Source of the DNA: Chlamydiales bacterium
Lineage (GTDB): Bacteria > Chlamydiota > Chlamydiia > Chlamydiales > JAAZZY01
Assembly (NCBI GenBank): GCA_965206695.1
Contig: CBDBKM010000005.1
Span: forward strand, 73,244 to 137,243
Direction of reading: 5' to 3'
Length of the DNA stretch: 64,000 nucleotides
A program made the translations under genes and the position numbers. Shown one piece after another: positions 14,794 to 63,096 of the stretch (positions within the stretch are counted from its first letter, which is position 1; every line of letters starts with the position of its first letter). The notes beneath the pieces were generated by a model. That model was given only the letters and a program-made list of their open reading frames with translations, had not been told where the DNA came from and searched no databases.

Positions 14794-15081
14794 GAAGATT
14801 GCTCTGCATTTGAATGTATTGATTTTTGCATCTTCTTTATAATTAACCATTTTTTTATTTTAATTGTATTATAGAAAAAATTTAATTAAAATCGGAATAA
14901 AAAACCTGTCACTAATAATCTATTAACATTAAAAAATTGAAATAATAACTATTATATTGTTAAGAGATTCAACACATTAGTTTATCTGCTTAATATTATC
15001 ATTCTTTTTAAATGTATTGGGTAAGGTATAGGTTGCAATTTTCCAATAATACCCTTAATAATAAAATTGGAGGCAGGTAAA

Positions 15082-18501: not shown

Positions 18502-18530
18502 TTAATTTATACTTATCTAAGGTGATACTC

Positions 18531-20066: not shown

Positions 20067-21049
20067 TATTGGCAGGAGATATCGGAGGGACTAAAACTAA
20101 CTTAGCTATTTTTGATGTTAAAGATTCTAAATTGGTTTTAAAAGAAGAAAAAAAATACCCCGGCTCTGATTATGAAAGCCTCGATAAAATCGTTAATCTT
20201 TTTCTAAGTGAACATCCTACTAAAATCTTAAGTGCCTCTTTTGGCATTGCAGGCCCGGTAAAAGAAGGAAAAGCTAAAACAACTAACCTGCCTTGGGTTA
20301 TTGATGCCAAAACTCTTGCAAACGAAATAAAATGTGAGCATGTATCCTTACTCAATGATCTGGAAGCAAATGCTTATGGCATTGCAGTGCTGGAAACCAA
20401 AGACTTTTTTAATTTAAACAAGGGAGACACCTCTATAAAAGGCAATGCCGCATTAATTTCTGCAGGTACAGGCCTAGGAGAAGCCGGATTATATTGGGAT
20501 GGTAAAAACCATCTTCCATTTGCCTGTGAAGGCGGTCATGTAGATTTCGCAGCACGAAACGAACTGGAAATGCGTTTATTTCAATTCCTTAATAAAGAAG
20601 AAGAGCATGTTTCATATGAAAAGGTACTCTCCGGCATTGGAATACATAACATCTATCGATTTCTACTTCATGATCATCAAAGCCGTCCCGGTAATCAGTT
20701 GCAGAAAGATCTGAAAGAAAAAGACCCTGCTTATGTTATCTCAGAATATGCTCTAAACAATAAAGATTTAATCTGTGTCGAAGCACTTGAGCTTTTCATG
20801 ATGCTATATGGATCTGAAGCGGGTAATGTTGCGTTAAAATTTCTGGCAGTCGGCGGGCTTTATATTGGAGGCGGTATCGCACCCAAAATTTTAGAGAAAT
20901 TAAAAACCTCACAGTTCATGACGTGTTTTTGTAAAAAAGGCCGTATGGATACCCTCTTAAAGCCTATTCCGGTAAATGTCATTTTAAATGACAACGCAGC
21001 CCTTTTAGGAGCTGCTCGATTTGCAGCTCTACAGGTTGATTTAATATAG
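20063..21049 (+). CDS. glk: glucokinase
   Basis: Motifs MILAGDIGGTKTNLAIF, EGGHVDFA and GGGIAPK. ATGA overlap with the zwf stop (20063-20066). An alternative GTG start lies at 20051. Confidence 0.9.
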   Translation: MILAGDIGGTKTNLAIFDVKDSKLVLKEEKKYPGSDYESLDKIVNLFLSEHPTKILSASFGIAGPVKEGKAKTTNLPWVIDAKTLANEIKCEHVSLLNDLEANAYGIAVLETKDFFNLNKGDTSIKGNAALISAGTGLGEAGLYWDGKNHLPFACEGGHVDFAARNELEMRLFQFLNKEEEHVSYEKVLSGIGIHNIYRFLLHDHQSRPGNQLQKDLKEKDPAYVISEYALNNKDLICVEALELFMMLYGSEAGNVALKFLAVGGLYIGGGIAPKILEKLKTSQFMTCFCKKGRMDTLLKPIPVNVILNDNAALLGAARFAALQVDLI

Positions 21050-21913: not shown

Positions 21914-23021
21914 TATACCCCTTATGAATCAAAGTGCCGATTCTAAGACTTGAAAATGATCATTGATTCGTTTCCTCATTGATTGAGCAATAGAGGGCCA
22001 AGTATTTTCAAAAAATCCGGTAATCGATCTCCGAAATTCTTTAGCAGAATTAAAAAACCGATTATTGCGACAATATTCATTCATCACTTTCCATAATCGT
22101 TCAATGGGATTGAGGTTAGGACTGTAAGAAGGTAAATAATAGAGAATAATACCTTGTTTTTCTGCTTCTTGTTTGGTCTGAATACTTGTATTATAAGGGC
22201 CTTGATCTAAAATAAGATGGATATTTGGAGCTGAGGGGTATTTTGACCGTAGCAAAGCAAAATGCTTTGCCATGGTACCGCTATTTAATGTTTCATAAGC
22301 ATCTATTGTTACCTTCATACTGTTTAAATTGATAGACCCCATAAGATTCATTCGAGTACGAGAAGCTGTTGTTGCAATCAATTTATCTGTTCCCGGTCGA
22401 ATCCAACCATAAGAAATTTTAGTTGCCATAGTTGGATGTACACCATCAGCAAATTCAACAGGCTCATTTTTAGGCAAAGATGCCATAAGCTTGGCGTAAA
22501 ATTGCATCCAAGCTTTTTGTTGATCAGAATTTGCCTTAGCCGGTGTACCTTTAGGCTTTTTATAGGAAAAACCATGTGAGTGTAGCCAAGAAGTCATCCC
22601 TGAAATCGTATAAACAATGCCATATTTCGCGAGAACATAAGAACAGATATCTTCTACTTTGACATAGGTATGAGTTGTTAAATGTTTAATGAATTCTTCT
22701 GACTGTGGCGCAAGAAGTTTACTGACTGAACCACCGCTTTCTATATGCAATTGCTGTTTATTTTGATATTCTTTAATGTGACGAGACACTGTTTCATCGT
22801 CTAAAAGCACAGCTTCAGCAATACGAGTATTACTCCAACCTTTATTCGACAATAGAACAGCCTTGATACGATCTCGTATACGACCATTCTTTTCTCGTTT
22901 ATGTTGCTGTCTGAGATGCTTTTCTTCTGATAGTGTTAAAAATGAATTCATACAAAACAATTTACACTATACGAATACAAAATATCCGGAGGTTTATTCG
23001 TGATGAGTATATACTTAGTAC
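21914..23021 (-). mobile_element. IS630-family IS (fourth lineage), apparently intact
   Basis: Imperfect terminal IRs beginning TATAC, with TA at both junctions. It carries the full-length ORF 21929..22960. Confidence 0.8.
21929..22960 (-). CDS. IS630-family transposase, full length
   Basis: 343 aa in a single frame. N-terminal HTH (WSNTRIAEAVLLDDETVSRHIKEY). DDE residues in FADGVH, LILDQGPYN and YSPNLNPIERLW. Confidence 0.9.
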   Translation of the reverse strand: MFCMNSFLTLSEEKHLRQQHKREKNGRIRDRIKAVLLSNKGWSNTRIAEAVLLDDETVSRHIKEYQNKQQLHIESGGSVSKLLAPQSEEFIKHLTTHTYVKVEDICSYVLAKYGIVYTISGMTSWLHSHGFSYKKPKGTPAKANSDQQKAWMQFYAKLMASLPKNEPVEFADGVHPTMATKISYGWIRPGTDKLIATTASRTRMNLMGSINLNSMKVTIDAYETLNSGTMAKHFALLRSKYPSAPNIHLILDQGPYNTSIQTKQEAEKQGIILYYLPSYSPNLNPIERLWKVMNEYCRNNRFFNSAKEFRRSITGFFENTWPSIAQSMRKRINDHFQVLESAL

Positions 23022-31805: not shown

Positions 31806-33883
31806 ATGAAAGTCGTTTTAGCCGAAAAACCCAGCGTCGCAAGAGATATCGCATCCTTTTTAAAAGCTAATACTAAAGGCAATGGCTATTTTGAAGGTAA
31901 TGGTTATCAGGTTACATGGGCATTCGGACATTTAGTCACCTTAAAAGACCCGAATGAGTACGATCCCGGTTTAAAAAAATGGACCTTATCTACTCTCCCC
32001 TTTATTCCTAAAGATTTTGAATTGAAACTCGTCAATAATCAAGGGGTAAAAACCCGGTTTCAAGTAATTAAAAAGCTGTTTAAGGCAAGCGGATGAAATC
32101 ATCTGCGCTACAGATGCCGGAAGAGAGGGAGAGCTTATCTTTCGCTATATTCTGAAGATGAGTAATTGTGAAAAAAAGCCCTTTTGCCGTCTTTGGTTAA
32201 CTTCTTTAACCAATGAGGCAATTAAGTCGGGTTTTAAACAATTACAACCCGGAGAGGTCTATAACAACCTATATATGGCTGCTAAATGCAGAAGTGAATC
32301 TGATTGGGTAGTGGGAATAAATGGCACGCGAAATTTTACTGTGCGATATGGAAAAGGAACTCTTTGGAGCATCGGAAGGGTACAAACACCTGTTTTAGCT
32401 ATGATCGTTGCAAGAGATGATGAAATTCGAAACTTTGTCCTTCAAAATTTTTGGGAGCTTTTTTCCACTTTTAAAAACGTAGCTTTTAAATATACCGGTA
32501 AACGTTTTGATAAAAAAGAAAAAGCAGAAGTTGCAAAAGCCAAAGTTGCATCTCATCCTTTCAGCATAACAAAAATTCAAAGCAAACAGGAAAAGCAACA
32601 ACCCTCCTTCTTTTATATGACCTAACCGATTTACAGCGAGACATGAACCGTCGATATGCTATGAGTGCATCGGATACGTTAAAAATTGCTCAAACCCTAT
32701 ATGAAAGTAAAATTCTGACTTATCCCAGAACCGATTCACGTTTTTTAAGCAATGATATGAAAAAGGACATTATTCATACACTTCATAAATTAAAAGCCAT
32801 AAAATCAAATGAAATCGACGTGCTAAATTTGAATGCACTTCCTTTTACATCTCGCATTATCAATGATAAAAAAGTATCCGATCACCCATGCTATTATCCC
32901 TACCGGCAAAATCCCTTCAGGCCTTCCACTATCTCATCAACAGGTTTTTGATGCCGTTGTGTTACGCCTTATCTCCGGTTTTTATCCTAATTGCACTAAG
33001 CAGGTTAAAACAGTTGAGGGAGAGAGTAATGAATTAAAATTTCAAGCTAAAGGCATTCAAGTCATAGAGCCCGGTTGGACACGATTATATCCTAAAACTA
33101 AAAAAGATGATGAACAAGAATTGCCTGAATTTAAAGAAGGTGAAACGGGTCCTCATAATCCATATATCAAAGAAGGTAAAACCAAGCCCCCCTAAATATT
33201 ATTCTGAAAATTCACTACTTGGCTCCATGGAAACCGCAGGAAAGATGGTGGAAGATGAGACGTTAAGAGAAGCATTAAAACAAAGAGGCCTTGGAACACC
33301 GTCAACTAGAGCTGCTATTATTGAGACTTTACTCAAAAGAGGATACATCGAAAGAAAGAAAAAAACTCTTGTAGCTACTGCTAATGGTCGATATTTAATT
33401 ACGTTAGTACAAAACCCCAATTTAAAATCTCCGGAGCTTACCGGTATTTGGGAGTCCAAATTAAAAGAAATCGAACATGGTGGTTTAGATTCTAACCAAT
33501 TTATGAATGAAATTTACGGTTATACCAAGGAACTTATTGAAACGAGTAATCTAACTGAGATTGACCCAAATCAACTGGGTCCTTGCCCTCTTTGTAATAG
33601 CTCCGTTATTCAAGGAAAGAAGGGCTTCGGATGTTCTCAATGGAAAAAAGGCTGCACATTCGTTTTATGGAGAGAATACAAGGGAGTCACTCTTTCTACG
33701 AATCATATCCAAAAGCTATTGCAAAAAAGGGTCATTTTATCGCCCGTCAACGTACCTGAATTAGGAAATGTCATCTTAACACTTTCCGATTCAGGTATCG
33801 TTAAAGAACAACCCGTTCCAAATGAAGCGCCTGCCTTTAAGAAGCGGTATCCGAAAAAGGCCTATTCTAAGCGGCGACAATAA
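31806..33883 (+). pseudogene. topB: DNA topoisomerase III, four frameshifts
   Basis: Recognisable parts: Toprim MKVVLAEKPSVARDIA, ICATDAGREGELIFRYI, TYPRTDSRFLS, SDH-HAIIPTGK and the Zn ribbon CPLCNS...GCSQWKKGC. Frame changes lie at 32084-85 (GG), 32602-04 (CCC), 32885-87 (CCC) and 33187-92 (C6). Confidence 0.85.
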
Positions 33884-37945: not shown

Positions 37946-38050
37946 TTGACAGCTCCCAACCCTAAAGGGAAGGGATTCCTAATTCATTGACCACTGCTAA
38001 CAAACAAGCTAGTCTAACATGATCTCCAAAGGCTTAAATTACCGACTGCC
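37946..38050 (-). repeat. IS605 RE / putative omegaRNA module 5
   Basis: Reverse complement reads GGCAGTCGGTAATTTAAGCCTTTGGAGATCATGTTAGAC...CCCTTCCCTTTAGGGTTGGGAGCTGTCAA. It lies upstream of, and co-oriented with, proB. Confidence 0.7.
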
Positions 38051-39130
38051 CCTGCGGTATCGATATTAATAGATGCATTAAGATCTCTATCGTGTGTTAC
38101 TTTGCAGTTTGGACACTGCCAACTTCTCACACTTAAATCTAAAATTTCTATTTGGTACCGGCAGGCAGAGCATAGTTTTGAACCGGCAAAAAATTGATCT
38201 AATTCCACTATATTTCTTCCGTACCATTCACACTTATACTTTAAAAATGTTAAAAACCGGCTCCATCCTGCATCCGATATATGCTTGGAAAGTTTTTTAT
38301 TTTTTAACATCTTATTAATATTTAACCCTTCTATCGTGATCGTTTGGTTTTCACGAGCCAACTTTGTAGAAAGTTTATGATGAAAGTCCTGCCTTATATT
38401 TTTTATCTTCGAATGTATCGAAGCCACCGATCTTCTTTTTTTGAGTCTGTTTTTACCTTTGACTTTAGCTTTGCTAAGAGAACGTTGTTTTCTTTTTAGT
38501 CTTTTCTTATGAAATCTAAAAGGTTTAGGTGCCGTAATCTTTTTCCCTGTAGAAAGAGTTGCGAATGTCGTTAATCCTAAATCTATACCGACAGAATTAT
38601 TTCTCTTCTCAAAAGGGATCACTTCTTCTTCTACTATATAGGCTCACAAAATACCTGTCACAAGAGCCTTTTGTGATTGTTATACCTGTTGGTGTACCTA
38701 AAAAACACCTTGACCAATGTATTTTTAATCTGTCTTTAGATTTTGCAATCTTAAGATTAACCCCATCCCAACTAAATGCTGACTTAGTTAATCGTATTGC
38801 CTGCGTACTGTGTTTGTTTTTAAAGCGAGGGAAATTTGACCTTTTTTTAAAAAGTTTAAAAAAGCTCTATCAAGATCTCTAAGACTTTGTTGCAGACAAA
38901 CAGAAGAAACTTCGTTTAACCAAAGAAACTCTTTGTTTTGCTTAAGACTTGTCAAGAATGCCGATGTTTTAGAATAACTTACATTCTCTTTGTATTGCCT
39001 GATATTTCTTGATCTTAAAATTTAAAGCTTGATTATATACAACTCCGGAACATCCAAAGCTTTTTGTAAGCAACTCCTTTTGTTTTTTCGTTGGATAGAA
39101 TCTAAATTTATATGCTTTTTTGATCATCAT
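38014..39130 (-). pseudogene. tnpB: TnpB homolog, N-terminal half frameshifted
   Basis: N-terminus MMIKKAYKFRFYPTKKQKELLTKSFGC at 39130. The C-terminal ORF 38014..38622 carries GIDLGLTTFATLS, the Zn finger CSACRY...CPNCKVTHDRDLNASINI, and an extra G that shifts the last codons. Confidence 0.85.
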
Positions 39131-43052: not shown

Positions 43053-43155
43053 TTGACAGCTCCCAATCCTAAAGGGAAGGGATTCCTCATTCAACGACCC
43101 TTGCTAACAAGGGTTAGTCTAATACGATATCCAAAGGCTTAAATTACCGACTGCC
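43053..43155 (-). repeat. IS605 RE / putative omegaRNA module 7
   Basis: Reverse complement GGCAGTCGGTAATTTAAGCC...CCCTTCCCTTTAGGATTGGGAGCTGTCAA. It overlaps the tnpB stop (..NIDTEGQSVI*). Confidence 0.7.
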
Positions 43156-44097
43156 CTTCGGTATCTATATTATAGGCTGCGTTAAAATCTCTGTCATGCA
43201 AAGTATTACATTTGGGACATTTCCAAGATCTTATATCGCAATCCAATTTTCCTATATTGTGCCGGCACATGGAGCATCGTTGTGTACCGGGAAAATTCTG
43301 AGGTAATTCTACTATGTTCCTTCCGTACCAATCACATGTATACTTTAAACATGGTAACAATTGACGCCATCCTGCATCTGATATACCTTTCGCATATCTT
43401 TTATTTTTTAACATACTTTTGATATCTAAACCTTTAATTATGATTGCTTGGTTTTCATAAATCAATTGTGTAGAAAGTATATGATAAAAGTCATGTCTTA
43501 TATTTTTAGAATGAATCTTGGCAACTTCGATTCTGCTTTTGTTTCTGTTTGAGCTGTTAGATTTAAATTTACTTAAACGTTTTTGATTTTTTTTTAATTT
43601 CTTTTTAAAATGCTTAAATGGCTGAGGGGAAAGTAACTTTTTACCGTTGGATGTTGTTAGACAACTTTCCGAACCCGGATCTATTTCGGTAGAATGATCC
43701 GGTTCTTTAGACTTTGCAATATATAAATGCATTTCCAGCCCATCTAAACGCGGAATTGGTAAACGAAATTGATTAGGTAGTGTTTTTAGTTTTGAATGTA
43801 GGAAAATGAACCCTCTTTTTAAAACAATTTGAATACGCTCTATCAAGGTTCCTAAGGCTTTGCCGTAGACAAATAGAGATGCTTCCTTTAACCAAAGAAA
43901 CTCTTTATTTTAAGATCTGTCAAGAATGCTGATATCACAGAGTTAGGAGATACTTTCTTTTTCTTCTTGATATTTCTTAACCTTAAAATTTAAAGCTTGA
44001 TTATACACTATCCTGCAACAACCGGAGCTTTTAGCTAAGAGCTCTTTTCGTTTTTTTGTTGGGTAGAATCTAAATTTATAACGTTTTTAATAGTCAT
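43139..44097 (-). pseudogene. tnpB: TnpB homolog, N-terminal part degenerate
   Basis: ORF 43139..43846 carries the RuvC/Zn-finger part (CSMCRHN...CPKCNTLHDRDFNAAYNI). The N-terminal KAYKFRFYPT region is frameshifted and shortened. Confidence 0.85.
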
Positions 44098-52484: not shown

Positions 52485-53696
52485 ATGGAAGAAAAAAAGA
52501 AGCACCCGCCGTTTAAAACATTTTTTCCCGGTGTTATTATGTTATCAACCGTTGGTTTTTTTGCAACCGACGCGTATATACCCTCTTTTCCATATATAGT
52601 AATAGACCTGGCCACTACTAAAAGCTTAGTACAGCTAACCCTTAGCTTCTATTTCTTATCTTTTGCTCTTTCCCAAATTTATTATGGCCCTTTATCCGAA
52701 AAATATGGTCGCCGTAAGATTGCTGTTTTTGGAATACTTTTCAGTCTGGTAGGCAATTTCGTATGTATATTTGCCCCGGATATTACTACATTAATTATTG
52801 GACGTTTTTTACAGGGACTTGCTTTCGGTGCAGGATCCACTGTATTTAGAGCTATTTTAAGAGATGCTTATTCCGGAAAAGAGCTCGCCTTTTATGGTTC
52901 CTTTATAGCAATAGGGACAGCATTCATGATGGCTATAGCACCGGCAATAGGAGGATATATTCAACATTATTTCAACTGGAGAATCAACTTTGTAGCAGCT
53001 TTAATCTATAGCCTTATCACGCTTGTTTGGATATGGAAATGGCTTCCTGAAACAAATGCGCATTTTAATCCGGATGCTATGAAAATTAAAACTTTTATAG
53101 GAAATTATCTTCATATTTTAAAAAACCCTATCTTTATTGGATATAGTTTTTGCTCCTGGCTTGCTTTAGCCGGAATTGAAGCTTTTTATGCCGTCAGTCC
53201 CTTTCTTTTAGAAGATGTGGTAGGATTAACTCCTATTCAATTTGGATGGCTTGCTTTCATAACCGGGGGAGGAATTGGTATAGGAGGAGTCCTGAATAGT
53301 TTTCTTGTAAAAGTAATTGGAAGGCATCGTATGTTACTTATAGGAATTGCCCTTGTTGTGCTATCCGGAGTCATAATGCTTCTATTCGGATATTTAGGCT
53401 ACCTCAATACATATGTTGTTATGGGCCCAATACTCATCTATATGATAGGATCGGCTCCTATTTTTGCGGGTGCTTTTGCCGGGGCTTTTCAACCATTTGC
53501 TAAGATGGCCGGTTTTGCCGGGGCTTTGTATAGTGGCTTTCAAATGTTAGGTGGAGCAATCGTAACCGCTATTGTTTCGGGATTCCACACACAAAATCAA
53601 ATTCCTTTGGGCTATATCCTTCTCATTCTTGGTATTCTTGCCTATTTCGCTCAGGTAGTAGCATTTCGTTATAGTAAAAAAGCAAATATGATATAA
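52485..53696 (+). CDS. MFS transporter, Bcr/CflA-like drug-efflux subfamily
   Basis: 403 aa with 12 TM segments. GPLSEKYGRRKI loop and N-terminal pattern typical of Bcr/CflA. Confidence 0.8.
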   Translation: MEEKKKHPPFKTFFPGVIMLSTVGFFATDAYIPSFPYIVIDLATTKSLVQLTLSFYFLSFALSQIYYGPLSEKYGRRKIAVFGILFSLVGNFVCIFAPDITTLIIGRFLQGLAFGAGSTVFRAILRDAYSGKELAFYGSFIAIGTAFMMAIAPAIGGYIQHYFNWRINFVAALIYSLITLVWIWKWLPETNAHFNPDAMKIKTFIGNYLHILKNPIFIGYSFCSWLALAGIEAFYAVSPFLLEDVVGLTPIQFGWLAFITGGGIGIGGVLNSFLVKVIGRHRMLLIGIALVVLSGVIMLLFGYLGYLNTYVVMGPILIYMIGSAPIFAGAFAGAFQPFAKMAGFAGALYSGFQMLGGAIVTAIVSGFHTQNQIPLGYILLILGILAYFAQVVAFRYSKKANMI

Positions 53697-53731: not shown

Positions 53732-53793
53732 TTAAATGAGTAAAAAAAATCCCAATGCTAAAGATAAAGAGTTTTCTTGCTTAATTGTTATAA
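53732..53793 (-). repeat. IS605 tnpA-3'/LE scar
   Basis: AAATGAG..AAAAAAAATCCCAATGCTAAAGATAAAGAGTTTTCTTGCTTAATTGTTATAA aligns to the LE of copies A and B with deletions. It contains the PPTase stop codon. Confidence 0.55.
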
Positions 53794-54452
53794 CAAATTG
53801 CTAGTGTATGTTCTTTTAGTTTGTTTGTAAAAACATAGATGTGATGACCATTTCCATGAAGAATTACCTCTTCGGAATTCTTTACCGGTAATTTTTCCAG
53901 TAAGGGAATCTCATTAGTTTTAAAACCTGTCCCTAAAGCTTTTAATAAAGCTTCTTTAGCACACCAAAATTGATAGAAAGTATCTAATGGATCTTTAGAA
54001 TTTAATATGTAATTTCTTTCTTTATCATGCAAAATAGACGATTTTATAAAGTTGTCATAATCACGTCTCTTCTCAATATCAACACCAATTGAAAGTTCTG
54101 AATGAAAACCGATGAATGCATAGGCTTTAGTGTGTGACAAATTAAAATGTATGGGCAAGCCTTCAATAAAAGGCTTGCCGACGGGATTTAGCTTTATTTC
54201 AATTTGTAAGGGTAAGCAATCTAAAAGCTGCGCTAAATGAAATCTTAGAAGTGCATGAGTAATAATAGATTTATGCTGATGTTCTTCATACACATATTGC
54301 TGTGATCTATCTAAGGAAGCTTTATCTAGCAACTTTATCGCTTGTAAAACTTCATGTTTTTGAATCAACTTGAGATCAAGTAGATAAAAAATACCTTTAT
54401 CAGAATGAAGAGAAAGAGGTTTTGATCGCTTAAGTAAATCGAATTGTTTCAT
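53781..54452 (-). CDS. Sfp-type 4'-phosphopantetheinyl transferase
   Basis: 223 aa with GKPF, FNLSHTKAYAFIG, GVDIE and FWCAKEALLKALGTG. Confidence 0.88.
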   Translation of the reverse strand: MKQFDLLKRSKPLSLHSDKGIFYLLDLKLIQKHEVLQAIKLLDKASLDRSQQYVYEEHQHKSIITHALLRFHLAQLLDCLPLQIEIKLNPVGKPFIEGLPIHFNLSHTKAYAFIGFHSELSIGVDIEKRRDYDNFIKSSILHDKERNYILNSKDPLDTFYQFWCAKEALLKALGTGFKTNEIPLLEKLPVKNSEEVILHGNGHHIYVFTNKLKEHTLAICYNN

Positions 54453-54471
54453 TATACATATTTCTTTTATC

Positions 54472-57400
54472 TTAAGTCTCTAATTTTGAGTGCAGCTTAG
54501 TCTGATAATTTTTTAAATAAACATTTAATCGTTTAGCTAAATCAGTAATATTAGGTTGCATGAGCATACTGATATGATTACCTGCTACCTCATGATTTTC
54601 AATACTTCCTTCTATGAGATGATGCCAAGTAGATGAAACGGTAATATCCGCTATTGAAGATAATCTGTCCTCTGCCTCAAAAAATAGCACATCACCAAAA
54701 TATTTTTTTGGCTTGTAGTTATCAAAGGCAAGCCAATGAACTTTCATCTTTTCAAAGAGTTTTTCCTTTTCAGAAAAGGATGAAGGTTCAAAGTGCATAC
54801 TTTTCATCAATATTTCTATTTGGTCATGTCTTGAAAGACCTTTAAGCTCTTCTGCTAGTTTGGGATTAGCAGAAAAAAGTTCAGCTAAGGTCGTTATCAT
54901 TTCAGTTTCAGTATCTACCTGTACCTTGTGAGGCAATTTCTCAGGGCAAATAATATCCAACATTGCCAGTAAAGAAATATCTTCAGATTCTTCTTTTAAC
55001 CGTATCGCCATTTCATAAGCTATAAGGCCTCCAAAAGACGTTCCTAGTAATTGGTAAGGCCCTTTAGGTTGTATCTTGCGAATTAACTGAATATACTTAG
55101 CAGCGATCTTTTCAATTGATATATGATCTCCAATTTCATAATCCGGACTCTCTAAACCATAAATAGCACTATCGTGTTTCAAAGCCTCAACTAAATCTTT
55201 ATAACAAAAGACGGAACCACTAATAGGATGCATGCAGAATAAGGGTTGATTTGTATTACCGTCTTTTAATTTTACAACTAAATGTGTTGAATCTTTTACC
55301 TGAATTTGTTGATGAATCGCTTTACCTAGTTTTTCTATTGTCGAATATTCCAATAGCATATTAGAACGAATTGAAATTTGGAATAATTCTTGAATTTTAG
55401 AAGTAATTTGAATAGCTAATAATGAGTCTCCTCCTAAATGAAAGAAATCATCGTGAATACCAATCGACTCTAACGCTAAAGCCTCTTGCCAAATAGATCT
55501 CAATGATCGTTCCAAATGATTTAAACTATGGTTTATCTCTTTGTGTACCTTCGGAGTATTTGTAGTAGAAGAATCCTTCGTAGGTGGGTAGATCCAGAAC
55601 TCTTTTTTCTTAAAAGGATAAGTGGGCAAGGAGATTCTATGAGATTGATTATTAACACAAAGCCTACCCCAATCTATATCAAGACCACGCGACCAAAGCT
55701 TACCTAATAATGAAAGATGAAATTTTGAACTGTCCTTTTCTACTGTAGGTAGTGATGGAGAAATAATATTTTCACGGTGAGTTAATTGATTTGTTTTGAT
55801 GAAACGGCAAACACTAGAGCCCGGGCCAACTTCAATGATTGCTTGATTCGGTCTTTTTAAAAGATCTTGAAAAACTGATAAATGCTTATTTAACGGGATC
55901 GAAGAATTGGAATAGGTCATCACTTTTTCCATTGTCTCTTTTAAGATGCCGGGATTCTCAATATAGCCTTCTAAATAGCGACCTATACCCCATGTAATGA
56001 TTCTATCCGGAAAGAGACCCCGGCTTTTCCATAACAAAAATAACGAATATGATATGATGAAATATGATAGATTCACCACCTCTTTTTTCTGATCTTGAAG
56101 AGAAGGATTTTTTATATCTAATGCCTCGCAGCAAAGAAAAGGTCGAAGGTTAATATCGAAATACTTTTTCGATAACTCAATAAGGTGATCGATACTGTCT
56201 CTAAAACAAGGCTCCTTTTCATAGAGATATTGTGAGGTATTAGTCCACTCATCTTGAATATCGGGAAGAATAAAAATAACATCGGGCTTTAAATCAACAG
56301 ATTCGAAAGTCTGATGATCATATGATAGCCTTGCAAGTAACTCCTCTTTATTGGAACACATAATCGCCTCTCTATAAGAAAAGCTTTTTCGACCGACTTG
56401 CAAGGTATAGGATATATCTCTTAAAGAGAACTCCGGATTCTTAAGCAAATGGTTTTTTAAACGAGAAAACATCTGATTAAGTGCCCATTCTGATTTGGCA
56501 GACAAAATAATTAACTCATCTCTATTCTTATTTTGAATAGTCGGTAAGATCGGCGCTTCTTCTAAAAGAATACAAGCATTTGTCCCTCCAAAACCTAAAG
56601 AAGACACTAATGCTCTTCTTGGATGAGATTTTTTCTCCCAATTTTTTAACTCTGTATTCACGTAAAATGGAGTTTTAGCAAAGTCGATAGTTGGATTAGG
56701 AGTATCAAAGTGCAAACTAGGAGGCAACATTTGATGGTTTAAAGCTAATGAGCATTTAATAAAGCCTGCTACTCCGGCCGCTTCCATCAAATGACCAATA
56801 TTACTTTTAATAGAACCTATAGCACAATAACCCGTTCTTTGAGTCTGTGCTTTAAAAGCTCGGTCTAAAGCATGAATTTCAATCGGGTCTCCCAGAGGCG
56901 TAGCAGTGCCATGAGTTTCAATATAGCCTATTGTTTCCGGATGAATGTCAGCTTTCTTAATAGCAAGGGAAACGGCTTCAACTTGCCCTTCAATACCGGG
57001 AGCTGTAAATCCAATTTTTTCTCCCCCATCATTGTTCATGCCATATCCGGAGATAACCGAATAAATATGATCGTTATCTTTCAAGGCTTGATCTAAAGGT
57101 TTTAAAACAACCACTCCAACACCACTTCCCGGTACTGTACCTTCAGCCTTTTTATCAAAAGATCTGCAATGACCATCCGGTGAAAAAATCATCCCATTTT
57201 GATAGAGATAACCTCGCTTTTGAGGGATTGAGAGGGATACTCCTCCTGCTATAGCAATATCACACTGATTGCTAAAAAGATGATCGCATGCAACGCAAAT
57301 AGATACCAAAGAGCTCGAACAAGCTGTTTGAATAGCAAGACTAGGCCCTTTGAGATTAAGCTTATATGAGACTCTTGTGGTTAAATAATCTTTTTCGTTA

Positions 57401-57855
57401 CCGATATGAGAAAGATATTCATCTGAATCATTTCGAAAGTCTTTATTAGGATATAGGTTATGTAAGTAATACAAACTATTACTACTTCCTGCAAATACCC
57501 CAATAGGTTGAGAGCTGTCCTTAGAATATCCGGCATCTTCTAATGCTTCATAACAGGATTCTAAAAACAGTCGATGCTGCGGATCCATTAATTTCGCTTC
57601 TTTAGAACTGATACCAAAAAAATTAGCATCAAAAGAAGCTATATCATCGACTATCCCTCTTGCAGGTACATAATTGGCATTATCTATCTGTTCATCAGAT
57701 ATTCCCGATATATGTAAATCGTGTTCAGAAAATTTTGAAATAGATTCCCTTTTTTTAGAAATATTATCCCAAAAGGCATCCGGATTATTAGCGCCCGGAA
57801 AGCGGCTTATCATTCCTATAATAGCAATCTTATGATCCTTTTTATTAGGAATCAT
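54472..57855 (-). CDS. single-module polyketide synthase: KS - degenerate AT - carrier protein - thioesterase
   Basis: KS motifs TACSSS, ETHGTATPLGDP and NIGHLMEAAG. The KS-AT linker is followed by an AT relic with TWGIG instead of GHSxG. The carrier domain has FFHLGGDSLLAIQ, and the TE has GTSFGG ... GNHISM. Confidence 0.9.
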   Translation of the reverse strand: MIPNKKDHKIAIIGMISRFPGANNPDAFWDNISKKRESISKFSEHDLHISGISDEQIDNANYVPARGIVDDIASFDANFFGISSKEAKLMDPQHRLFLESCYEALEDAGYSKDSSQPIGVFAGSSNSLYYLHNLYPNKDFRNDSDEYLSHIGNEKDYLTTRVSYKLNLKGPSLAIQTACSSSLVSICVACDHLFSNQCDIAIAGGVSLSIPQKRGYLYQNGMIFSPDGHCRSFDKKAEGTVPGSGVGVVVLKPLDQALKDNDHIYSVISGYGMNNDGGEKIGFTAPGIEGQVEAVSLAIKKADIHPETIGYIETHGTATPLGDPIEIHALDRAFKAQTQRTGYCAIGSIKSNIGHLMEAAGVAGFIKCSLALNHQMLPPSLHFDTPNPTIDFAKTPFYVNTELKNWEKKSHPRRALVSSLGFGGTNACILLEEAPILPTIQNKNRDELIILSAKSEWALNQMFSRLKNHLLKNPEFSLRDISYTLQVGRKSFSYREAIMCSNKEELLARLSYDHQTFESVDLKPDVIFILPDIQDEWTNTSQYLYEKEPCFRDSIDHLIELSKKYFDINLRPFLCCEALDIKNPSLQDQKKEVVNLSYFIISYSLFLLWKSRGLFPDRIITWGIGRYLEGYIENPGILKETMEKVMTYSNSSIPLNKHLSVFQDLLKRPNQAIIEVGPGSSVCRFIKTNQLTHRENIISPSLPTVEKDSSKFHLSLLGKLWSRGLDIDWGRLCVNNQSHRISLPTYPFKKKEFWIYPPTKDSSTTNTPKVHKEINHSLNHLERSLRSIWQEALALESIGIHDDFFHLGGDSLLAIQITSKIQELFQISIRSNMLLEYSTIEKLGKAIHQQIQVKDSTHLVVKLKDGNTNQPLFCMHPISGSVFCYKDLVEALKHDSAIYGLESPDYEIGDHISIEKIAAKYIQLIRKIQPKGPYQLLGTSFGGLIAYEMAIRLKEESEDISLLAMLDIICPEKLPHKVQVDTETEMITTLAELFSANPKLAEELKGLSRHDQIEILMKSMHFEPSSFSEKEKLFEKMKVHWLAFDNYKPKKYFGDVLFFEAEDRLSSIADITVSSTWHHLIEGSIENHEVAGNHISMLMQPNITDLAKRLNVYLKNYQTKLHSKLET

Positions 57856-58169
57856 TTTTTTCTCCTATTAGTTAAGTGAACTAAAATTTTTAATTACGAT
57901 TTGATTCTTTTAAAACTCATATTTTCAAATAATTCAGAAAAATTAAAATAAATATTCAATATTAGTTAAGTACTAGCTGTTTTCTTTTGAGATGCGGTAT
58001 TAAATCATATAATAAAATTATTAATTGTCATTCAGATCAGTGCAAAATTAATTAACATTAAACAAACATTCGATTGAATATTCGATGTTCCTTATTAAAA
58101 AATCAATAATTAAAAAAAATATTTAATAAATAAATTCATTAAAATCCTCAAATCAATTAAAGATCATTT

Positions 58170-59335
58170 GAATAACTCATGTTACGCAAAATCAAATAGC
58201 ATATCATTTTTCCGGCTCATGAAAGGTAGCCTGATTTGCTTTGATCAATAATTTGTATTTTAGGGCAAAATGGTTAAGATGGGTTTTAATTTTTAAAAAT
58301 TCCGGCTTGCAATAAGATAGGAGAGATGCAAAAATATGGTTTTTTTGAGATTTTTCAACCTTGGTAGGCGATTTTGCAAGGCTTGCATTTTGCTTAATAG
58401 ATTTGTGATACTCTTCTATTCTCCACCGTTTTTTGTAGATCTCATAGAGTGAGTCAGCATCATGGTTTAAGTCGTTGCTCACAAGGTATAGAGTCCCCGT
58501 GGAATTATCTTCGTTTTTGAAGACTTTTTTCACTAAGGAAACGGGAAAAGATAAATCTTTAAGCCGGACTATCTTTTTTTCTCCATCCTTGAAATTAATC
58601 GATTCAAGATTGTGATACTGACCTTTTTTTCTTGCTTCTTCTGAGAAAGCGATGAGTCTGTTGGACTTCATGCCTAAAATAAATTTCTTATCTGTATCAT
58701 AATGAATAAACTCCCTATTTTTTTTAGCTCCAAACCAATTATCTGCAAGAATATAATCAAACTTGACCTGATTCCGTATAGCTTGCTTTATTTGTTTTTG
58801 AAATAATTCATTTTTAGTGACATCGGATTTTCTTGTTTCCTTTTTGGTTTTGATATCACAAAAATGTACTGTTTTAGATATGACTTCATATCCGATAGGA
58901 AATACAATGTCATCATAATGAACAAGAGTAGATAAAATGTTAACCCCTTTGATACACCGACCTTTAGCATGAGAAAAATGCCATGCAATAATATCATTTT
59001 CATCCGTGTAAGGCTTCTCTTCGATAGAATCATCTATAATCAAAACACCGGCTTTACCTCCTGAATATTTTTTCAGCGTGTCTTTTACATAGCACCATAA
59101 ATCTTTTCCTGAAAATTCTCTCTTATTGAGAAAACGAGTAATTTTATCATGGCTGATCTCACCATCTAATAAAGCTGACAGTCCGGTAGCCGTAGCATAT
59201 TGGTTTTGGCTGATAAGGTAATCTGTATATATATCCGGGAGCTGTTTTGACATATTTTTTCCTCATAATTAGAGAAAAAATTATAAAAATAAAAAACTTT
59301 CTTTACATCACCTTTGCGGTAAGGTGAGTGAATAA
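58170..59335 (-). mobile_element. IS4-family insertion sequence, apparently intact (boundaries +/-15 bp)
   Basis: Imperfect IRs containing ACTCAnnTTAC(C)GCAAA. It carries ORF 58204..59253 and sits in the AT-rich divergent region between the PKS and NRPS genes. A second, broken copy lies at 1172-2638. Confidence 0.75.
58204..59253 (-). CDS. IS4-family DDE transposase
   Basis: 349 aa with LIIDDS, LADNWFG and the Y-2-R-3-E-6-K signature in YKKRWRIEEYHKSIK. Confidence 0.88.
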   Translation of the reverse strand: MSKQLPDIYTDYLISQNQYATATGLSALLDGEISHDKITRFLNKREFSGKDLWCYVKDTLKKYSGGKAGVLIIDDSIEEKPYTDENDIIAWHFSHAKGRCIKGVNILSTLVHYDDIVFPIGYEVISKTVHFCDIKTKKETRKSDVTKNELFQKQIKQAIRNQVKFDYILADNWFGAKKNREFIHYDTDKKFILGMKSNRLIAFSEEARKKGQYHNLESINFKDGEKKIVRLKDLSFPVSLVKKVFKNEDNSTGTLYLVSNDLNHDADSLYEIYKKRWRIEEYHKSIKQNASLAKSPTKVEKSQKNHIFASLLSYCKPEFLKIKTHLNHFALKYKLLIKANQATFHEPEK

Positions 59336-59395
59336 GTGCCTATATCAGATGGCCCCAAATATAGAATTGAATATAAATCCAATTTGTTTTAACAT

Positions 59396-59434
59396 GAACA
59401 ATCAAAACAAATATAATATTTGTTTTGATTGTTC
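59396..59434. promoter_or_regulatory. 39-bp palindrome (19-bp perfect arms, 1-nt spacer) upstream of the NRPS gene
   Basis: GAACAATCAAAACAAATAT-A-ATATTTGTTTTGATTGTTC followed by TTTTTT, ending 54 nt before ATG 59488. Confidence 0.45.
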
Positions 59435-59487
59435 TTTTTTGATTATTAAGATTTAAATAGAATAAGGAGTAATTAAGAAGTAATGAT

Positions 59488-61878
59488 ATGCTTGATCTAG
59501 GATTTGAACGACCCATTACTTGCGATCGTAGCAAGGATAGGATTAGTTATTCTTCTTTTTTTTCCAAAGAACTGACAAAAAATCTTCGTCATTTTTCTTT
59601 AGAATGGAAAATTCCGGCAGCTCTAATTTTATTAGGAGCATATCAGGTGCTCCTTTACCGCTACTGCAGCAAAAATGAGTTTGTAATAGGAATCCGGGAT
59701 TCTAACAAAAATCAGACGGCTCACTTAAATTGTCAAGGACAGGATACATTCCAAAAGCTATTAACTAGTTTACAGCTTTGCAAAACTGTTAATTGCACCC
59801 CGATTAAACCTAACTTCTTTTTTTCTACAGAAAAAAACGCCACATCTTTGCTTGACAATGCTTCTATAGATTTACATTTTTCAATACTTCAAAAAAATGA
59901 ATCATATTTAGTCACAGCCGATGCCTTAACTAAAGCATTCTATCCTGATACTATTGAGAATATGGTAAATCATTACTCACGTTTATTAGAAAACTTATTA
60001 AAGTACCCGCATGAAGTATTAGAGCATGTTCCTTTTTTATCACCTAAAGAAGAAGACTTATTACTCAACACATTAGCAAGGACAACAACAGAAAGCTACC
60101 CTGATAATATCTTAGATACTTTTACTGATTTCGCAAAACATCTCCCAAATAAAATAGCCGTTAAAGGCGATATGGATTCTTTAACTTATAGTGATCTTGA
60201 TATTCAATCTAATCAGCTAGCATCGTATTTAACAAAAATGAAAATTGGAGCTGATGATGTGGTTGCTGTTAGCACCTCACATTGTCCTAAGTTGATAATA
60301 GCCCTTTTGGCAATTATCAAAATAGGGGCTACTTACCTGCCTTTAGATCCTAGTTATCCTGAAATTCGTTTGCAAGAGATGCTCAAAGATGCCAAACCAA
60401 AAATTTTATTAACGCAATCTAAATGGGTCGTTAAGTTTAACAAATATTCGGTATCTATTTTACAAATAGATACCGAATGGAATCAAATCCAAACATCCGG
60501 TAAAGAGTTCGTATATGCTAAACCGGACCCTTTTTCAACAGCTTATATTATATATACATCAGGTTCTACAGGAAAACCTAAAGGAATCATGATTGCATAT
60601 CGAAGCCTTTCCCACCTATCATTAGAACGAAAAATGTTTTATCCTGAGGAAACGATACCCCTACTATTAGGATCAATAGCTTTTGATATCAGCTTGTTAA
60701 TGATATTTCATACTTTAATGACTGGTGGAACGCTATGTATTCCTGAGCACAGCAAGTATGTAGATGGAGAAGCATTAATTCAATTTATGGAGCAGCATTG
60801 TGTGAATTATCTCATGTGTGTTCCTTCATTTTATGCTATGCTCCTTGAAAAATCTATCCCTTTACCTGCTCATTTGTTGATGGTGAGTCTTGTAGGTGAA
60901 GTCATTCCCAACTCGTTACCTATTTTGCACCAACAATTAGCTCCTGAAGCAATTTTAAATAATGAATATGGGCCTTGTGAAATAGCAATAGGGAGCAATC
61001 ATGCTATAGTTTATGATTCAAAATCAAAAAAAATCAACCGGATGACAATTGGTAAACCTCTTCCAAATACAGATGTATTTATTCTCACACCTAATCTTTC
61101 GCCTGCTTTGTTAGGAACAAAAGGAGAAATTTGTATCGGAGGTATTGGATTAGCCAAAGGATACTTAAATAATAAGAAATTAACAGAAGAAAAATTTGTT
61201 GATGTTTCTTTTAATAGAAAAACGCCTAATAAGCTCTATCGTACCGGAGACTTTGGACGTCTGCATCCAGATGGTAATTTTGAATTTTTAGGACGTATGG
61301 ATACCCAAATAAAATTGCGTGGGCATCGAATAGAACTTGATGAAATAGAACGCAAGCTTATGCAACATATTGACATTGATGAAGCCGTTATTCTTCTTGA
61401 TAAGAATAACGAAACTCAAGGGTATCTTGTAGCTTATTTTACCACAATGTCAGGTAATGAGTTATCTATTGACGCAGTGCGAGACTTTCTCAAGCAAAAT
61501 CTTCCAAAATTTATGATCCCTACTCATTTTCTTCAACTTAAAAACTTTCCTCGAACCTTAATTAAAAAGATTGATCGGAAAGCTTTGCCAAAAATTTTAA
61601 ATTCCATTCCAATTAAGAATACCCCAGAAACAAGCTCTGAAATAAAATCTAAGCTATTGAGCATTTGGAAAGATGTTTTAGGTAATCAAGAAATCAATCA
61701 AAATAAGAACTTCTTTGACCTTGGTGGAAATTCTTTATTGCTTGCAACCGTCCAAACAAAAGTAAAAGGCGTTTTTGGTGTTAACATTCCTATGATTGAG
61801 TTCTTCAATTTTCCAACACTTGATAAACTTGCAGTACATTTGAAAAAATCATTAACTCTCATCAAATTAAATTCATAA
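59488..61878 (+). CDS. non-ribosomal peptide synthetase module: partial C - A - T
   Basis: The first ~190 aa correspond to the C-terminal subdomain of a condensation domain, with no HHxxxDG. A-domain motifs are YIIYTSGSTGKPKG, NEYGPCE, YRTGD, GRMDTQIKLRGHRIELDEIE and IDRKAL. The T domain has FFDLGGNSLL. Confidence 0.9.
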   Translation: MLDLGFERPITCDRSKDRISYSSFFSKELTKNLRHFSLEWKIPAALILLGAYQVLLYRYCSKNEFVIGIRDSNKNQTAHLNCQGQDTFQKLLTSLQLCKTVNCTPIKPNFFFSTEKNATSLLDNASIDLHFSILQKNESYLVTADALTKAFYPDTIENMVNHYSRLLENLLKYPHEVLEHVPFLSPKEEDLLLNTLARTTTESYPDNILDTFTDFAKHLPNKIAVKGDMDSLTYSDLDIQSNQLASYLTKMKIGADDVVAVSTSHCPKLIIALLAIIKIGATYLPLDPSYPEIRLQEMLKDAKPKILLTQSKWVVKFNKYSVSILQIDTEWNQIQTSGKEFVYAKPDPFSTAYIIYTSGSTGKPKGIMIAYRSLSHLSLERKMFYPEETIPLLLGSIAFDISLLMIFHTLMTGGTLCIPEHSKYVDGEALIQFMEQHCVNYLMCVPSFYAMLLEKSIPLPAHLLMVSLVGEVIPNSLPILHQQLAPEAILNNEYGPCEIAIGSNHAIVYDSKSKKINRMTIGKPLPNTDVFILTPNLSPALLGTKGEICIGGIGLAKGYLNNKKLTEEKFVDVSFNRKTPNKLYRTGDFGRLHPDGNFEFLGRMDTQIKLRGHRIELDEIERKLMQHIDIDEAVILLDKNNETQGYLVAYFTTMSGNELSIDAVRDFLKQNLPKFMIPTHFLQLKNFPRTLIKKIDRKALPKILNSIPIKNTPETSSEIKSKLLSIWKDVLGNQEINQNKNFFDLGGNSLLLATVQTKVKGVFGVNIPMIEFFNFPTLDKLAVHLKKSLTLIKLNS

Positions 61879-61899: not shown

Positions 61900-63096
61900 T
61901 TATGTATGTAACTCTTTTGGCCTTATTTTTTCATATTTAATAAATGGAAACCAAGAAACTATAATGAGGCTCAATGAGAAAGTTATAACGTACATTATAT
62001 GAAGCTGAAAAAAGTTATGAAACAAAACAATAAATATTGAAATGAGCAAAGCAATAGTATCAGTCGATTCAATCAAACCATAAACTCTACCTTGCTCATG
62101 ATAAGCGGCTCCTTTAGCAAGCATCGAAAATAAAGTTGCAGGAAGAATAGCTATACCGATTGTATAGAAATAAAAACAACCTGCCAATAGAGAGAAATTT
62201 GGGATGTGTGAAAATAAAAAATCTACATAAAATGGCAATAGAGATACGGACCCAAAAAGAAAACCAATTCTACTCATCATGCTATCAGAAACTCGATTAC
62301 AAAATTTCAGTGCCAAAATCCCGGTTAAATACCCCACCGATATTGTTATTGCAACCCAAAAAAATTGTTGAATTTTGAAATCAACGTATAACAAGAGAAT
62401 GCAATAAATCGCAATTTCCCACAAAAGAAATGCAAAAATCGCACTTAACATATAAGTCTTTTTAAGATCATTTATTAATAGCTTTATCTCTTTAATGATT
62501 AGATCTAAAAAACGACTATTCTTCAATGTACCACGGCTGTTCTTATCGCGGATATCTGTAAAGGCCTTAATACAAAAATAAATAATCAGAATATAAAATA
62601 CTATCATTATTGCAATGGCAATCTGTTCTTTAATATAAAATTCCTGAAAAACTAATAACGCATAAGCTACTGCATAAGAAGCAGTTGAGAGTCCAAATGA
62701 AAAGCGATAATTGCTATTTTGAGTATCTGCAATCGCGGCCCATGAAAGAGGGATTGTATTCCCGAAGCCTCCTTTAATAAAGCTTAATATGATTAATATT
62801 GGTAAAAACTTTACAATTGTCAAATTCAATAAAAACAATAGAATAATAGTTATCGAGGTGGCTGATAATGAAAAGACTAAGCTTTTTTTTCTACAATATA
62901 AATCCGAAAAAGATGCTTGGATAGGAGCTGCAAGACTTTGCAAAGTAAGAACACCTACAAAAAGTGCCATTTGCAACGACAATATTTGCTCATTGAAAGC
63001 ACGAAAGATGTAGTTTTCACAAATAACATCTCCAAAAATAAATAACAGTATCAATAAGAGAGAGTTAGTCGGTTTTGAGACATTATTTTTAAACAT
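61900..63096 (-). CDS. MFS-type transporter (candidate exporter of the NRPS-PKS product)
   Basis: 398 aa with about 12 TM segments, convergent with the NRPS gene. Family assignment rests on topology only. Confidence 0.65.
   Translation of the reverse strand: MFKNNVSKPTNSLLLILLFIFGDVICENYIFRAFNEQILSLQMALFVGVLTLQSLAAPIQASFSDLYCRKKSLVFSLSATSITIILLFLLNLTIVKFLPILIILSFIKGGFGNTIPLSWAAIADTQNSNYRFSFGLSTASYAVAYALLVFQEFYIKEQIAIAIMIVFYILIIYFCIKAFTDIRDKNSRGTLKNSRFLDLIIKEIKLLINDLKKTYMLSAIFAFLLWEIAIYCILLLYVDFKIQQFFWVAITISVGYLTGILALKFCNRVSDSMMSRIGFLFGSVSLLPFYVDFLFSHIPNFSLLAGCFYFYTIGIAILPATLFSMLAKGAAYHEQGRVYGLIESTDTIALLISIFIVLFHNFFQLHIMYVITFSLSLIIVSWFPFIKYEKIRPKELHT

Follow-up and report, generated by a model that had tools for sequence, protein, structure and literature searches.

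The 64,000-nucleotide stretch of contig CBDBKM010000005.1 from a Chlamydiales bacterium (referred to below as the window, the positions of which are used throughout) contains on its minus strand an open reading frame (ORF; 54472–57855) for a type I polyketide synthase (PKS) of 1127 residues, the acyltransferase (AT) domain of which is, as judged from its sequence, catalytically dead and about half deleted. The gene was assigned from the ORF list, its translation and its Pfam domains, and has a GC content of 35.7% compared with 35.1% for the window. It contains the interval 55810–56285, in which a sequence-only reading had placed a dead and shortened AT without naming the strand, and all motifs are read on the reverse complement.

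The order of the domains is ketosynthase (KS), KS–AT linker, AT relic, post-AT linker, acyl carrier protein (ACP) and thioesterase (TE), all encoded on the minus strand. The KS comprises residues 9–434 (56554–57831; Pfam families PF00109 and PF02801, with E values of 2e-73 and 4e-41), of which Pfam places residues 9–384, followed by a C-terminal extension, and it retains an intact catalytic triad of Cys177 in TACSSS, His315 in HGTAT and His355 in NIGH. The KS–AT linker, or flanking, subdomain lies at residues 447–512 (56320–56517; PF22621 and PF22336, with E values of 3e-22 and 2e-16, placed at residues 448–512) and is modelled by AlphaFold2 (AF2) with a predicted local distance difference test score (pLDDT) of >90. 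The relic begins with the N-terminal half of the AT large subdomain, residues 523–648 (55912–56289), which was recognized with a profile of intact ATs, with tblastn, with AT structures from the PDB, with a MAFFT alignment and in the AF2 model. It is followed by a deletion scar, residues 649–661 (55873–55911), in which 13 residues stand in place of ~130 of an intact AT and which is marked by abutting tblastn pieces and unmatched profile nodes. The last helix and last β-strand of the AT, residues 662–686 (55798–55872), with the sequence FQDLLKRPNQAIIEVGPGSS, correspond to profile nodes 278–302 and to ClbI from residue 796. The post-AT linker, residues 687–760 (55576–55797), which includes LPTYPFKKKEFW, was delimited by alignment to the corresponding linkers in KS structures, both cis-AT and AT-less, and its motif L-P-x-Y-x-F-...-W is invariant across the PKS family. 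The carrier protein domain occupies residues 784–847 (55315–55506; PF00550, E value 6e-15), with Ser811 in GGDS, and the TE occupies residues 870–1105 (54541–55248; PF00975, E value 2.5e-26), with the motif GTSFG. With TACSSS, HGTAT, NIGH, GGDS and GTSFG all present, the protein has the make-up of an elongation/termination module of a type I modular PKS, and its KS, ACP and TE look functional.

Identity of the acyltransferase relic

Four separate comparisons, by phmmer, by tblastn, with the intact-AT profile and by a search of the PDB with the relic alone, agree on the AT identity of the region, and residues ~523–686 are homologous to AT domains by alignment. In the phmmer search of the whole PKS against the PDB, residues 6–633 were paired without a break with residues 4–635 of ClbI (8xju), so that TWGIG falls on the GHSLG strand, and the alignment was resumed at residue 673, paired with ClbI residue 796, with ~120 target residues left unpaired; DEBS and CurL were matched as well. 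When the intact AT of homologue P0028 (residues 521–860) was used as a tblastn query against the window, AT residues 15–150 were found at 56280–55873 (E value 2e-10) and AT residues 270–339 at 55872–55669 (E value 1e-9). Since these two pieces abut at 55873/55872, AT residues ~151–269 have been lost cleanly and in frame.

The intact-AT profile, based on 34 such ATs from the same protein family, has 303 nodes, with GQGSQ at node 27, GHS at node 116, HAFHS at nodes 214–218 and VGPG at node 292. Nodes 18–127 match residues 523–632 (51 bits, E value 5e-18) and nodes 278–302 match residues 662–686, with the ~150 nodes in between (128–277) standing as just 29 residues. From the landmarks of the profile, this unmatched block means that the small subdomain and the catalytic His are absent and that the large subdomain has lost most of its C-terminal half. 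The distance from GHS to VGPG is 176 nodes in the profile compared with 55 residues in the window PKS, in keeping with the sequence-only reading, which had counted about 55 residues between TWGIG and EVGPGSS and had deduced from this that the small subdomain and the HAFH motif are missing. With the relic and the post-AT linker alone (residues 513–760), the ATs of CurL (E value 7e-14) and ZmaA (E value 1e-11) were retrieved from the PDB, and ClbK (8cjh) was matched by the post-AT part of this query only. The Pfam AT family PF00698 (Acyl_transf_1) was matched below threshold (12.2 bits with a cut-off of 32.7, E value 0.13), nonetheless in the expected register, with residues 542–653 on profile positions 16–121 of 319. 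The alignment with cis-AT domains that had been read from the sequence is thus borne out by the profile, by the register with ClbI and by the PDB ATs; the region is related to ATs, and neither a Ser nucleophile nor a full-length AT is found in it by profile alignment.

ATs use a Ser/His dyad for catalysis (PMC11907408). In the window PKS, GHSxG (GHSIG) is replaced by TWGIG at residues 621–625, with the nucleophile Ser changed to Gly623 and the His to Trp622, exactly at the codons that had been named beforehand (55981–55995), and neither Ser nor Cys occurs at or beside the nucleophile elbow (IITWGIGRY). The canonical GQGSQ motif is likewise replaced, as had also been noticed, with PDIQDEW at residues 531–537 (56245–56265) aligned with SGQGSQY. 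The catalytic His of the xAFH motif, (H/Y)A(F/S)H, has been deleted, profile nodes 128–277 being without a counterpart, and so has the ferredoxin-like small subdomain, as tblastn skips AT residues 151–269 and the subdomain is also missing from the AF2 model. For the carboxylate-binding Arg, AARGKLM of the intact ATs is paired by MAFFT with KVMT-YSN, which contains no Arg, in an alignment that is weak at the edge of the deletion. The EVGPGSS motif is found at residues 675–681 (55813–55833). Because the Ser/His dyad is gone, the AT domain can be regarded as dead. The stretch is best described as a former AT, which by its profile, PDB and Foldseek matches shares descent with AT domains in sequence and fold and which has lost the motifs of a functional one.

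The same picture was obtained from structure prediction. The AF2 model of residues 436–780 has a mean pLDDT of 82.8 and a predicted template modelling score (pTM) of 0.80, and Foldseek ranks PDB entries of AT domains plus linkers highest, namely ZmaA (4qbu; E value 8e-20, template modelling score 0.69 on the query), followed by CurL, DEBS and ClbI. The relic is predicted with confidence as a compact α/β unit of AT-like fold without the small subdomain. From the N-terminal half it keeps the first strand (VIFILP), the long helices and the strand of the nucleophile elbow (RIIT) with the two helices that come next, and from the C-terminal end the final helix and strand (AIIEV). A control model, calculated from an alignment of the relic-bearing homologues alone, has the same secondary structure with a pLDDT of 79.2.

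Graded loss of the acyltransferase among relatives

The best homologue in the database search is 47% identical to the window PKS, and among the GTDB species representatives the best match is that of Ca. Acheromyda pituitae (56%). Three architectural classes were found among the homologues, which were told apart by the spacer from YTLxxGR in the linker to the post-AT LPTYxF. The class with an intact AT has a spacer of 381–431 residues (mode 387) and GHSxG in nearly all members; the relic-bearing class consists of 16 full-length KS-x-ACP-TE proteins with a spacer of 194–339 residues, which is 260 residues in the window protein; and the AT-less class of KS-ACP-TE proteins, which includes those from metagenome-assembled genomes (MAGs) of Rhabdochlamydiaceae, has a spacer of 49–78 residues. 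GHSxG is found in none of the 16 relic-bearing proteins (the window PKS and 15 homologues), 13 of which have Gly at the position of the Ser, and since the decay of the AT is common to all of them it is older than the window genome.

All of the relics keep the N-terminal part of the AT, which ends at profile nodes ~121 to ~165, while the C-terminal part varies, with a restart at nodes ~211 to ~277 or with nothing kept, and the relic of P0007 has an additional internal deletion. The smallest deletions correspond to about the small subdomain alone (nodes 166–217 in P0006 and nodes 152–224 in P0005). The boundaries of the deletions vary by protein, yet the deletions are always centred on the small subdomain, and because the boundaries differ among the relics several independent deletions are indicated. 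A comparison of orthologous clusters, which had been proposed together with the sequence-only reading, also revealed an intact state: the orthologue P0019 (1235 residues, from a metagenome) carries a full-length AT with GQGSQ, GHSLG, the Arg and LAFH, which scores 470 bits on the intact-AT profile. Two other candidate relics, P0029 and P0107, were rejected, as their ATs are of full length and have an intact HAFH; the motif reads GYSxG in them and had been missed by the regular expression for GHSxG. Their neighbour in the KS tree, P0002 (an unrelated multidomain PKS of 1962 residues from a Chloroflexota MAG), provides a parallel and independent case of AT decay, in which GHSxG has become GNGVG, again with a change from Ser to Gly, and profile nodes 14–54 and 89–137 alone remain in a spacer of 201 residues.

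A neighbour-joining (NJ) tree was calculated with 100 bootstraps from 848 columns (KS and linker, and post-AT linker, ACP and TE), with the AT left out. All relic-bearing and AT-less proteins share a clade with the intact-AT protein P0019 (100% bootstrap), and this clade is nested (99% and 93%) inside the intact-AT, mostly cyanobacterial KS-AT-ACP-TE proteins. The window PKS is sister (85%) to a clade with 99% support that contains the relic-bearing P0079, P0088 and P0089 (spacer ~205) together with the AT-less P0017 and P0026 (spacer 69). From the nesting in this tree, AT loss appears to be derived, with complete excision following a relic stage at least in that subclade. The KS of the window PKS lies among those of cis-AT KS-AT-ACP-TE proteins in the tree, which was built without a reference set of trans-AT KSs. 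A sister relationship between P0019 and P0012, to which an initial tree of the KS alone and the neighbours that they have in common had pointed, was rejected at a bootstrap of 8%. The comparison thus supports the relic as a real intermediate in AT loss, on the way from a cis-AT to an AT-less protein.

Selection was measured in relatives, the window PKS being without a homologue close enough for the ratio of nonsynonymous to synonymous substitution rates (dN/dS), with its nearest at 47% identity. In the pair P0088 and P0089 (Nei–Gojobori, dS ~0.65) the AT relic has a dN/dS of 0.15 (95% confidence interval 0.09–0.30), alongside 0.07 for the KS, 0.11 for the TE and 0.24 for the ACP. In the pair P0005 and P0006, with dS near saturation, dN is 0.195 in the N-terminal half of the relic, 0.196 in the TE, 0.216 in the KS–AT linker and 0.44 in the C-terminal half of the relic. 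The N-terminal half of the relic is under purifying selection in these two pairs and the C-terminal remnant is eroding, and the N-terminal half appears to behave as a structural part of the protein. The sequence-only reading had spoken of a frozen intermediate between a cis-AT and an AT-less architecture: 'intermediate' agrees with the spacer series and the tree, whereas 'frozen' is half right, as it describes the N-terminal half and not the remnant that is eroding in relatives.

Biosynthetic cassette and neighbourhood

Directly downstream of the PKS gene lies a gene for an Sfp-type 4'-phosphopantetheinyl transferase (PPTase) of 223 residues (53781–54452, minus strand; PF01648 and PF22624), which is also found as a neighbour in related cassettes, and a major facilitator superfamily (MFS) transporter at 52485–53696 (plus strand; PF07690, E value 7e-44) is a conserved member of the cassette; a second MFS transporter is encoded at 61900–63096. 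The partner of the PKS is a nonribosomal peptide synthetase (NRPS) of 796 residues (59488–61878, plus strand), assigned by Pfam, which consists of the tail of a condensation (C) domain, an adenylation (A) domain and a peptidyl carrier protein (PCP) and for which the closest solved structure is LgrA module 2 (E value 2e-178). This NRPS presumably supplies the starter acyl or aminoacyl group to the KS. An attempt to read a specificity code for the A domain by aligning it with a fragment of GrsA gave an ambiguous result, which was not used. Residues 123–192 of the NRPS form a second domain relic, in which no more than the ~70 C-terminal positions of a Condensation domain (profile positions 386–455 of 456) are preserved ahead of the A domain; a 788-residue NRPS beside P0088 and P0089 gives the same faint C-domain match, and the other cassettes have shorter A-PCP proteins of 624–640 residues.

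An ORF for a DDE transposase (58204–59253, minus strand; PF13546 and PF01609), outside the pathway, lies between the PKS and NRPS genes. When terminal inverted repeats of this insertion sequence (IS) were sought in the region 57856–59487, none was found, only A+T-rich chance matches, and a 15-nucleotide repeat pair at 57856/59266 covers two ribosome-binding regions. A 24-nucleotide palindrome at 59391–59439 (arms 59391–59414 and 59416–59439, 92% complementary and 1 nucleotide apart) lies ~50 nucleotides upstream of the start of the NRPS gene and may act as an operator or form a hairpin of the terminator type.

One cassette of MFS transporter, A-PCP and PKS is found in the intact (P0019), relic-bearing (P0012, P0088, P0089, P0005 and P0006) and AT-less (P0039) states, usually with the addition of a PPTase, an S-adenosylmethionine (SAM) methyltransferase or both and in two cases with a lipocalin. 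In the related cassettes examined, among them locus L001, the PKS gene is directly preceded by the A-PCP gene on the same strand; the exception is P0013, whose contig breaks off before an A-PCP gene is reached. The contexts are in part chlamydial: a CT021-family gene lies near P0013, L001 is from Ca. Acheromyda pituitae of the family Rhabdochlamydiaceae and P0079 is from a Chlamydiia MAG. A gene for an aromatic amino-acid ammonia-lyase (positions 782–2422 of locus L008, minus strand) lies divergently upstream of the relic-bearing P0013, 2.8 kb upstream of which the contig ends, and may be a sign that a cinnamate-type acid is the starter in some versions of the pathway.

Elsewhere in the window, pieces of a type IA topoisomerase are found in two plus-strand ORFs, 32158–32625 (profile positions 2–127) and 33107–33883 (profile positions 314–410), which apparently represent one disrupted gene. 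There are four IS630/DDE_3 transposase ORFs, at least two of which are truncated (1674–2177, 11553–12041, 13763–14494 and 21929–22960), two short TnpB (OrfB_IS605) ORFs (38014–38622 and 43139–43846) and an ApbE ORF (5544–6125) that spans only profile positions 1–158 of 266. These fragments of mobile elements and genes, together with the split topoisomerase, suggest a genome that is undergoing gene decay. A block for sugar catabolism on the plus strand (15067–21049) encodes a GH15 glucoamylase/glucodextranase, a short protein resembling 6-phosphogluconate dehydrogenase, glucose-6-phosphate dehydrogenase and glucokinase; the nearest named match of the glucose-6-phosphate dehydrogenase is from a Chlamydiae MAG, with 63% identity. 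An early idea of a Legionellales origin, prompted by the succession of glucoamylase, zwf and glk genes, was not borne out. The organism appears to be without a close sequenced relative, since of ten window proteins that were looked up in the collection nine were found, all of which form singleton clusters.

Interpretation and comparison with known systems

The findings are probably best explained by a dead cis-AT remnant that has been kept as a structural piece in a module that works through malonylation in trans. The half-AT would most likely remain folded and, as a structural element, bridge the KS–AT linker subdomain and the post-AT linker. The neighbouring A-PCP protein would hand the starter to the KS, the ACP would receive its malonyl group in trans, most probably from FabD, the housekeeping transacylase of fatty-acid synthesis, the KS would condense starter and extender, and the TE would release the product. 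With an intact AT as the tblastn query, no second AT-like sequence, hence no fabD, was found within the window, and a discrete AT was likewise absent from the sequence that flanks nine related cassettes, as far as their contigs extend and up to 10 kb. FabD would be the likely loader because no dedicated AT lies by any cassette examined and because Chlamydiae keep a complete type II fatty-acid synthesis (PMC6167442), and since AT-less orthologous cassettes are widespread, the cassette evidently works without a cis-AT. The sequence-only reading had left two possibilities for the module, loading in trans or loss of function; the former is better supported by the intact module, by the lack of any rate acceleration and by the AT-less orthologues, and it is the one that we infer here.

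As to the order of events, the AT may first have been inactivated by the change from Ser to Gly, after which the small subdomain would have been lost, independent deletions would have worn down the C-terminal half and, in many lineages, the whole domain would have been cut out. The window PKS would be a mid-stage member of this series, which belongs to one largely chlamydial NRPS–PKS cassette. The half-AT would persist because it remains packed on the KS–AT and post-AT linkers; a partial removal that bares its core would be deleterious, whereas a clean excision is tolerated, as in the AT-less orthologues.

Several points weigh against this interpretation. The backbone of the NJ tree is unresolved inside the relic/AT-less clade, and the basal position of P0019 has just 19% support. 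The confidence of the AF2 model is no proof that the truncated domain folds. The evidence for selection comes from relatives that are 28–35% identical to the window PKS over the linker–relic–post-AT region. The N-terminal half of the relic is the least conserved region family-wide, with a mean identity of 0.31 compared with 0.63 for the KS, whereas the corresponding values for this region and the KS are 0.67 and 0.69 in pairs of intact-AT proteins with a comparable divergence of the KS, so that the constraint on the relic is clearly relaxed relative to that on a working AT. The AT-less orthologues show that the relic is dispensable in the long run. For this genome, the search for AT and fabD sequences covers the 64 kb window. 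Finally, the window NRPS and PKS genes are divergent with an IS between them, whereas those of the relatives are co-directional with overlapping stop and start codons (L011 and L012; also L013, L014, L009, L010 and L001), the SAM methyltransferase of most related cassettes is not present in the 64 kb window and the window contains many gene fragments, so that a recent loss of expression of the cluster is possible.

If the N-terminal half has been retained for more than its shape, it might have been exapted as a noncatalytic docking platform that recruits FabD or positions the ACP. The purifying selection in two related pairs and the four residues that are invariant in all 16 relics (F528, Y545, G613 and P616) would fit such a role, and docking sites for stand-alone ATs have been postulated for AT-less modules in general (PMC11907408). 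However, the invariant residues are of hydrophobic-core and turn types, and many orthologous cassettes conserved in complete-looking genomes do without any AT remnant, which argues that such docking is not required; we regard this role as rather doubtful.

The state of the locus raises the question of whether the whole cassette is already out of use here, in which case the PKS gene would be a pseudogene in the making, with an ORF that has not yet been broken and a relic that has no present role. The transposase ORF between two genes that are now divergent, the missing methyltransferase, and the split topoisomerase and several truncated transposase and TnpB genes in the window all point in this direction, but the decay of the AT predates the window genome, the ORFs of the PKS (1127 residues), NRPS (796 residues) and PPTase (223 residues) are uninterrupted and all catalytic motifs outside the AT are intact. 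The window PKS also shows no rate acceleration: its identity to outgroups is 0.547 over the KS and linker and 0.352 over the C-terminal part, no lower than that of the sister lineages (0.515–0.518 and 0.30–0.31, respectively). Disuse is thus unlikely as an explanation.

It is very unlikely that the relic is unconstrained filler, kept in frame only for translation of the ACP and TE. The 31% mean family identity, the highly variable length and the in-frame deletions with many boundaries are what filler would produce, but the dN/dS values of 0.15 and about 0.11 for the N-terminal half in relatives are far below 1 and resemble those of the TE and ACP, the N-terminal half still scores 51 bits on the intact-AT profile although the TE has diverged to 43% identity, and the region is predicted as a confident, compact α/β unit. 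An active AT with unconventional residues is hardly conceivable, as there is no Ser or Cys at the nucleophile elbow and both the His region and the small subdomain, and with the latter half of the substrate pocket, have been deleted; no support for it was found, and the GYSxG relatives P0029 and P0107, which may be active, keep the Ser, the xAFH His and the full length.

The interpretation as a structural piece in a trans-loaded module can be extended, tentatively, to a stepwise and still living route from cis-AT to AT-less PKSs that is separate from the origin of the canonical trans-AT PKSs, in which complete excision was repeated in several lineages, the N-terminal half is selectively kept as a noncatalytic brace at the interface of the two linkers or as a landing pad for FabD and the window PKS is a functional, FabD-dependent half-AT PKS; this is possible, although we do not consider it probable as a whole. 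To our knowledge, a FabD-dependent 'half-AT' state of a PKS has not been described.

For annotation, domain callers see KS-ACP-TE and an unexplained gap of ~250 residues here, and knowledge of the dead half-AT avoids both the prediction of a cis-loaded extender and the assignment to the canonical trans-AT PKSs. For the evolution of assembly lines, the series provides a concrete order of events for a module that becomes dependent on an external acyltransferase, and it suggests that the part of the AT that is hardest to lose is the N-terminal half that packs beside the KS–AT linker. The naturally tolerated cut sites (nodes ~121–165 on the left and ~211–277 on the right, or an excision that leaves 49–78 residues) could guide the removal or swapping of ATs in engineering. 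The cassette itself (A-PCP, KS-x-ACP-TE, PPTase, MFS transporter and often a methyltransferase) occurs widely among environmental chlamydiae.

Compared with the cis-AT modules of ClbI (8xju), CurL (4mz0), ZmaA (4qbu) and DEBS (2hg4), the window PKS has the same order of KS, KS–AT linker, AT, post-AT linker and ACP; the first ~125 residues of the AT and its last helix and strand align residue by residue, and the predicted fold superposes. However, the relic lacks GQGSQ, the Ser of GHSxG, the small subdomain and the xAFH His (~120 residues), and stays below the cut-off of PF00698. With the AT-less modules of trans-AT PKSs (bacillaene PksJ/PksL; KS structures 4tkt, 4zdn and 4qyr), it shares the absence of a working cis-AT, so that the extender must be loaded in trans, and both keep the KS–AT linker and the LPTYPF post-AT motif (PMC11907408), whereas the window PKS still has half an AT. 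As a trans-AT system the window PKS is atypical: a functional cis-AT is missing, as it should be, but the cluster contains no stand-alone AT gene dedicated to it. In the NJ tree the KS of the window PKS groups with those of cis-AT KS-AT-ACP-TE proteins, whereas the canonical trans-AT PKSs are regarded as having arisen independently of cis-AT PKSs (PMC5772238).

Other parallels are orthologous. The AT-less proteins of Ca. Acheromyda pituitae (L001) and of Rhabdochlamydiaceae (P0039) have 55–59% identity in the KS and the same ACP and TE, and their loci agree with that of the window, with the same cassette of MFS transporter, A-PCP and PKS for P0039 and A-PCP followed by PKS for L001; in both the AT has been fully excised, with a spacer within 49–78 residues compared with 260 in the window PKS. 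At the other end of the series, P0019 has the same cassette with an intact AT in place of the relic, and its RHS/YD-shell neighbour is also found beside the relic-bearing P0012 and P0005.

Degenerate AT regions have been reported in ClbC, ClbK and ClbO of the colibactin pathway, and inactive domains such as KS0 and KR0 (ketoreductase) are further vestiges in megasynthases. The relic represents the same general phenomenon, in which a dead domain is retained and is complemented in trans. No account of such a half-AT, or of a graded series within one orthologous family, was found in the literature, the coverage of which was incomplete, and this PKS is not mentioned in the literature on chlamydial biosynthetic gene clusters that was examined. 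Assembly lines are well known to contain dead domains as well as AT-less modules that keep the KS–AT linker subdomain (PMC11907408, PMC6164871). Such decay of a domain is not new in itself; what is added here is the series at the level of a family, from an intact AT through relics to complete excision, and the selective retention of half a domain.

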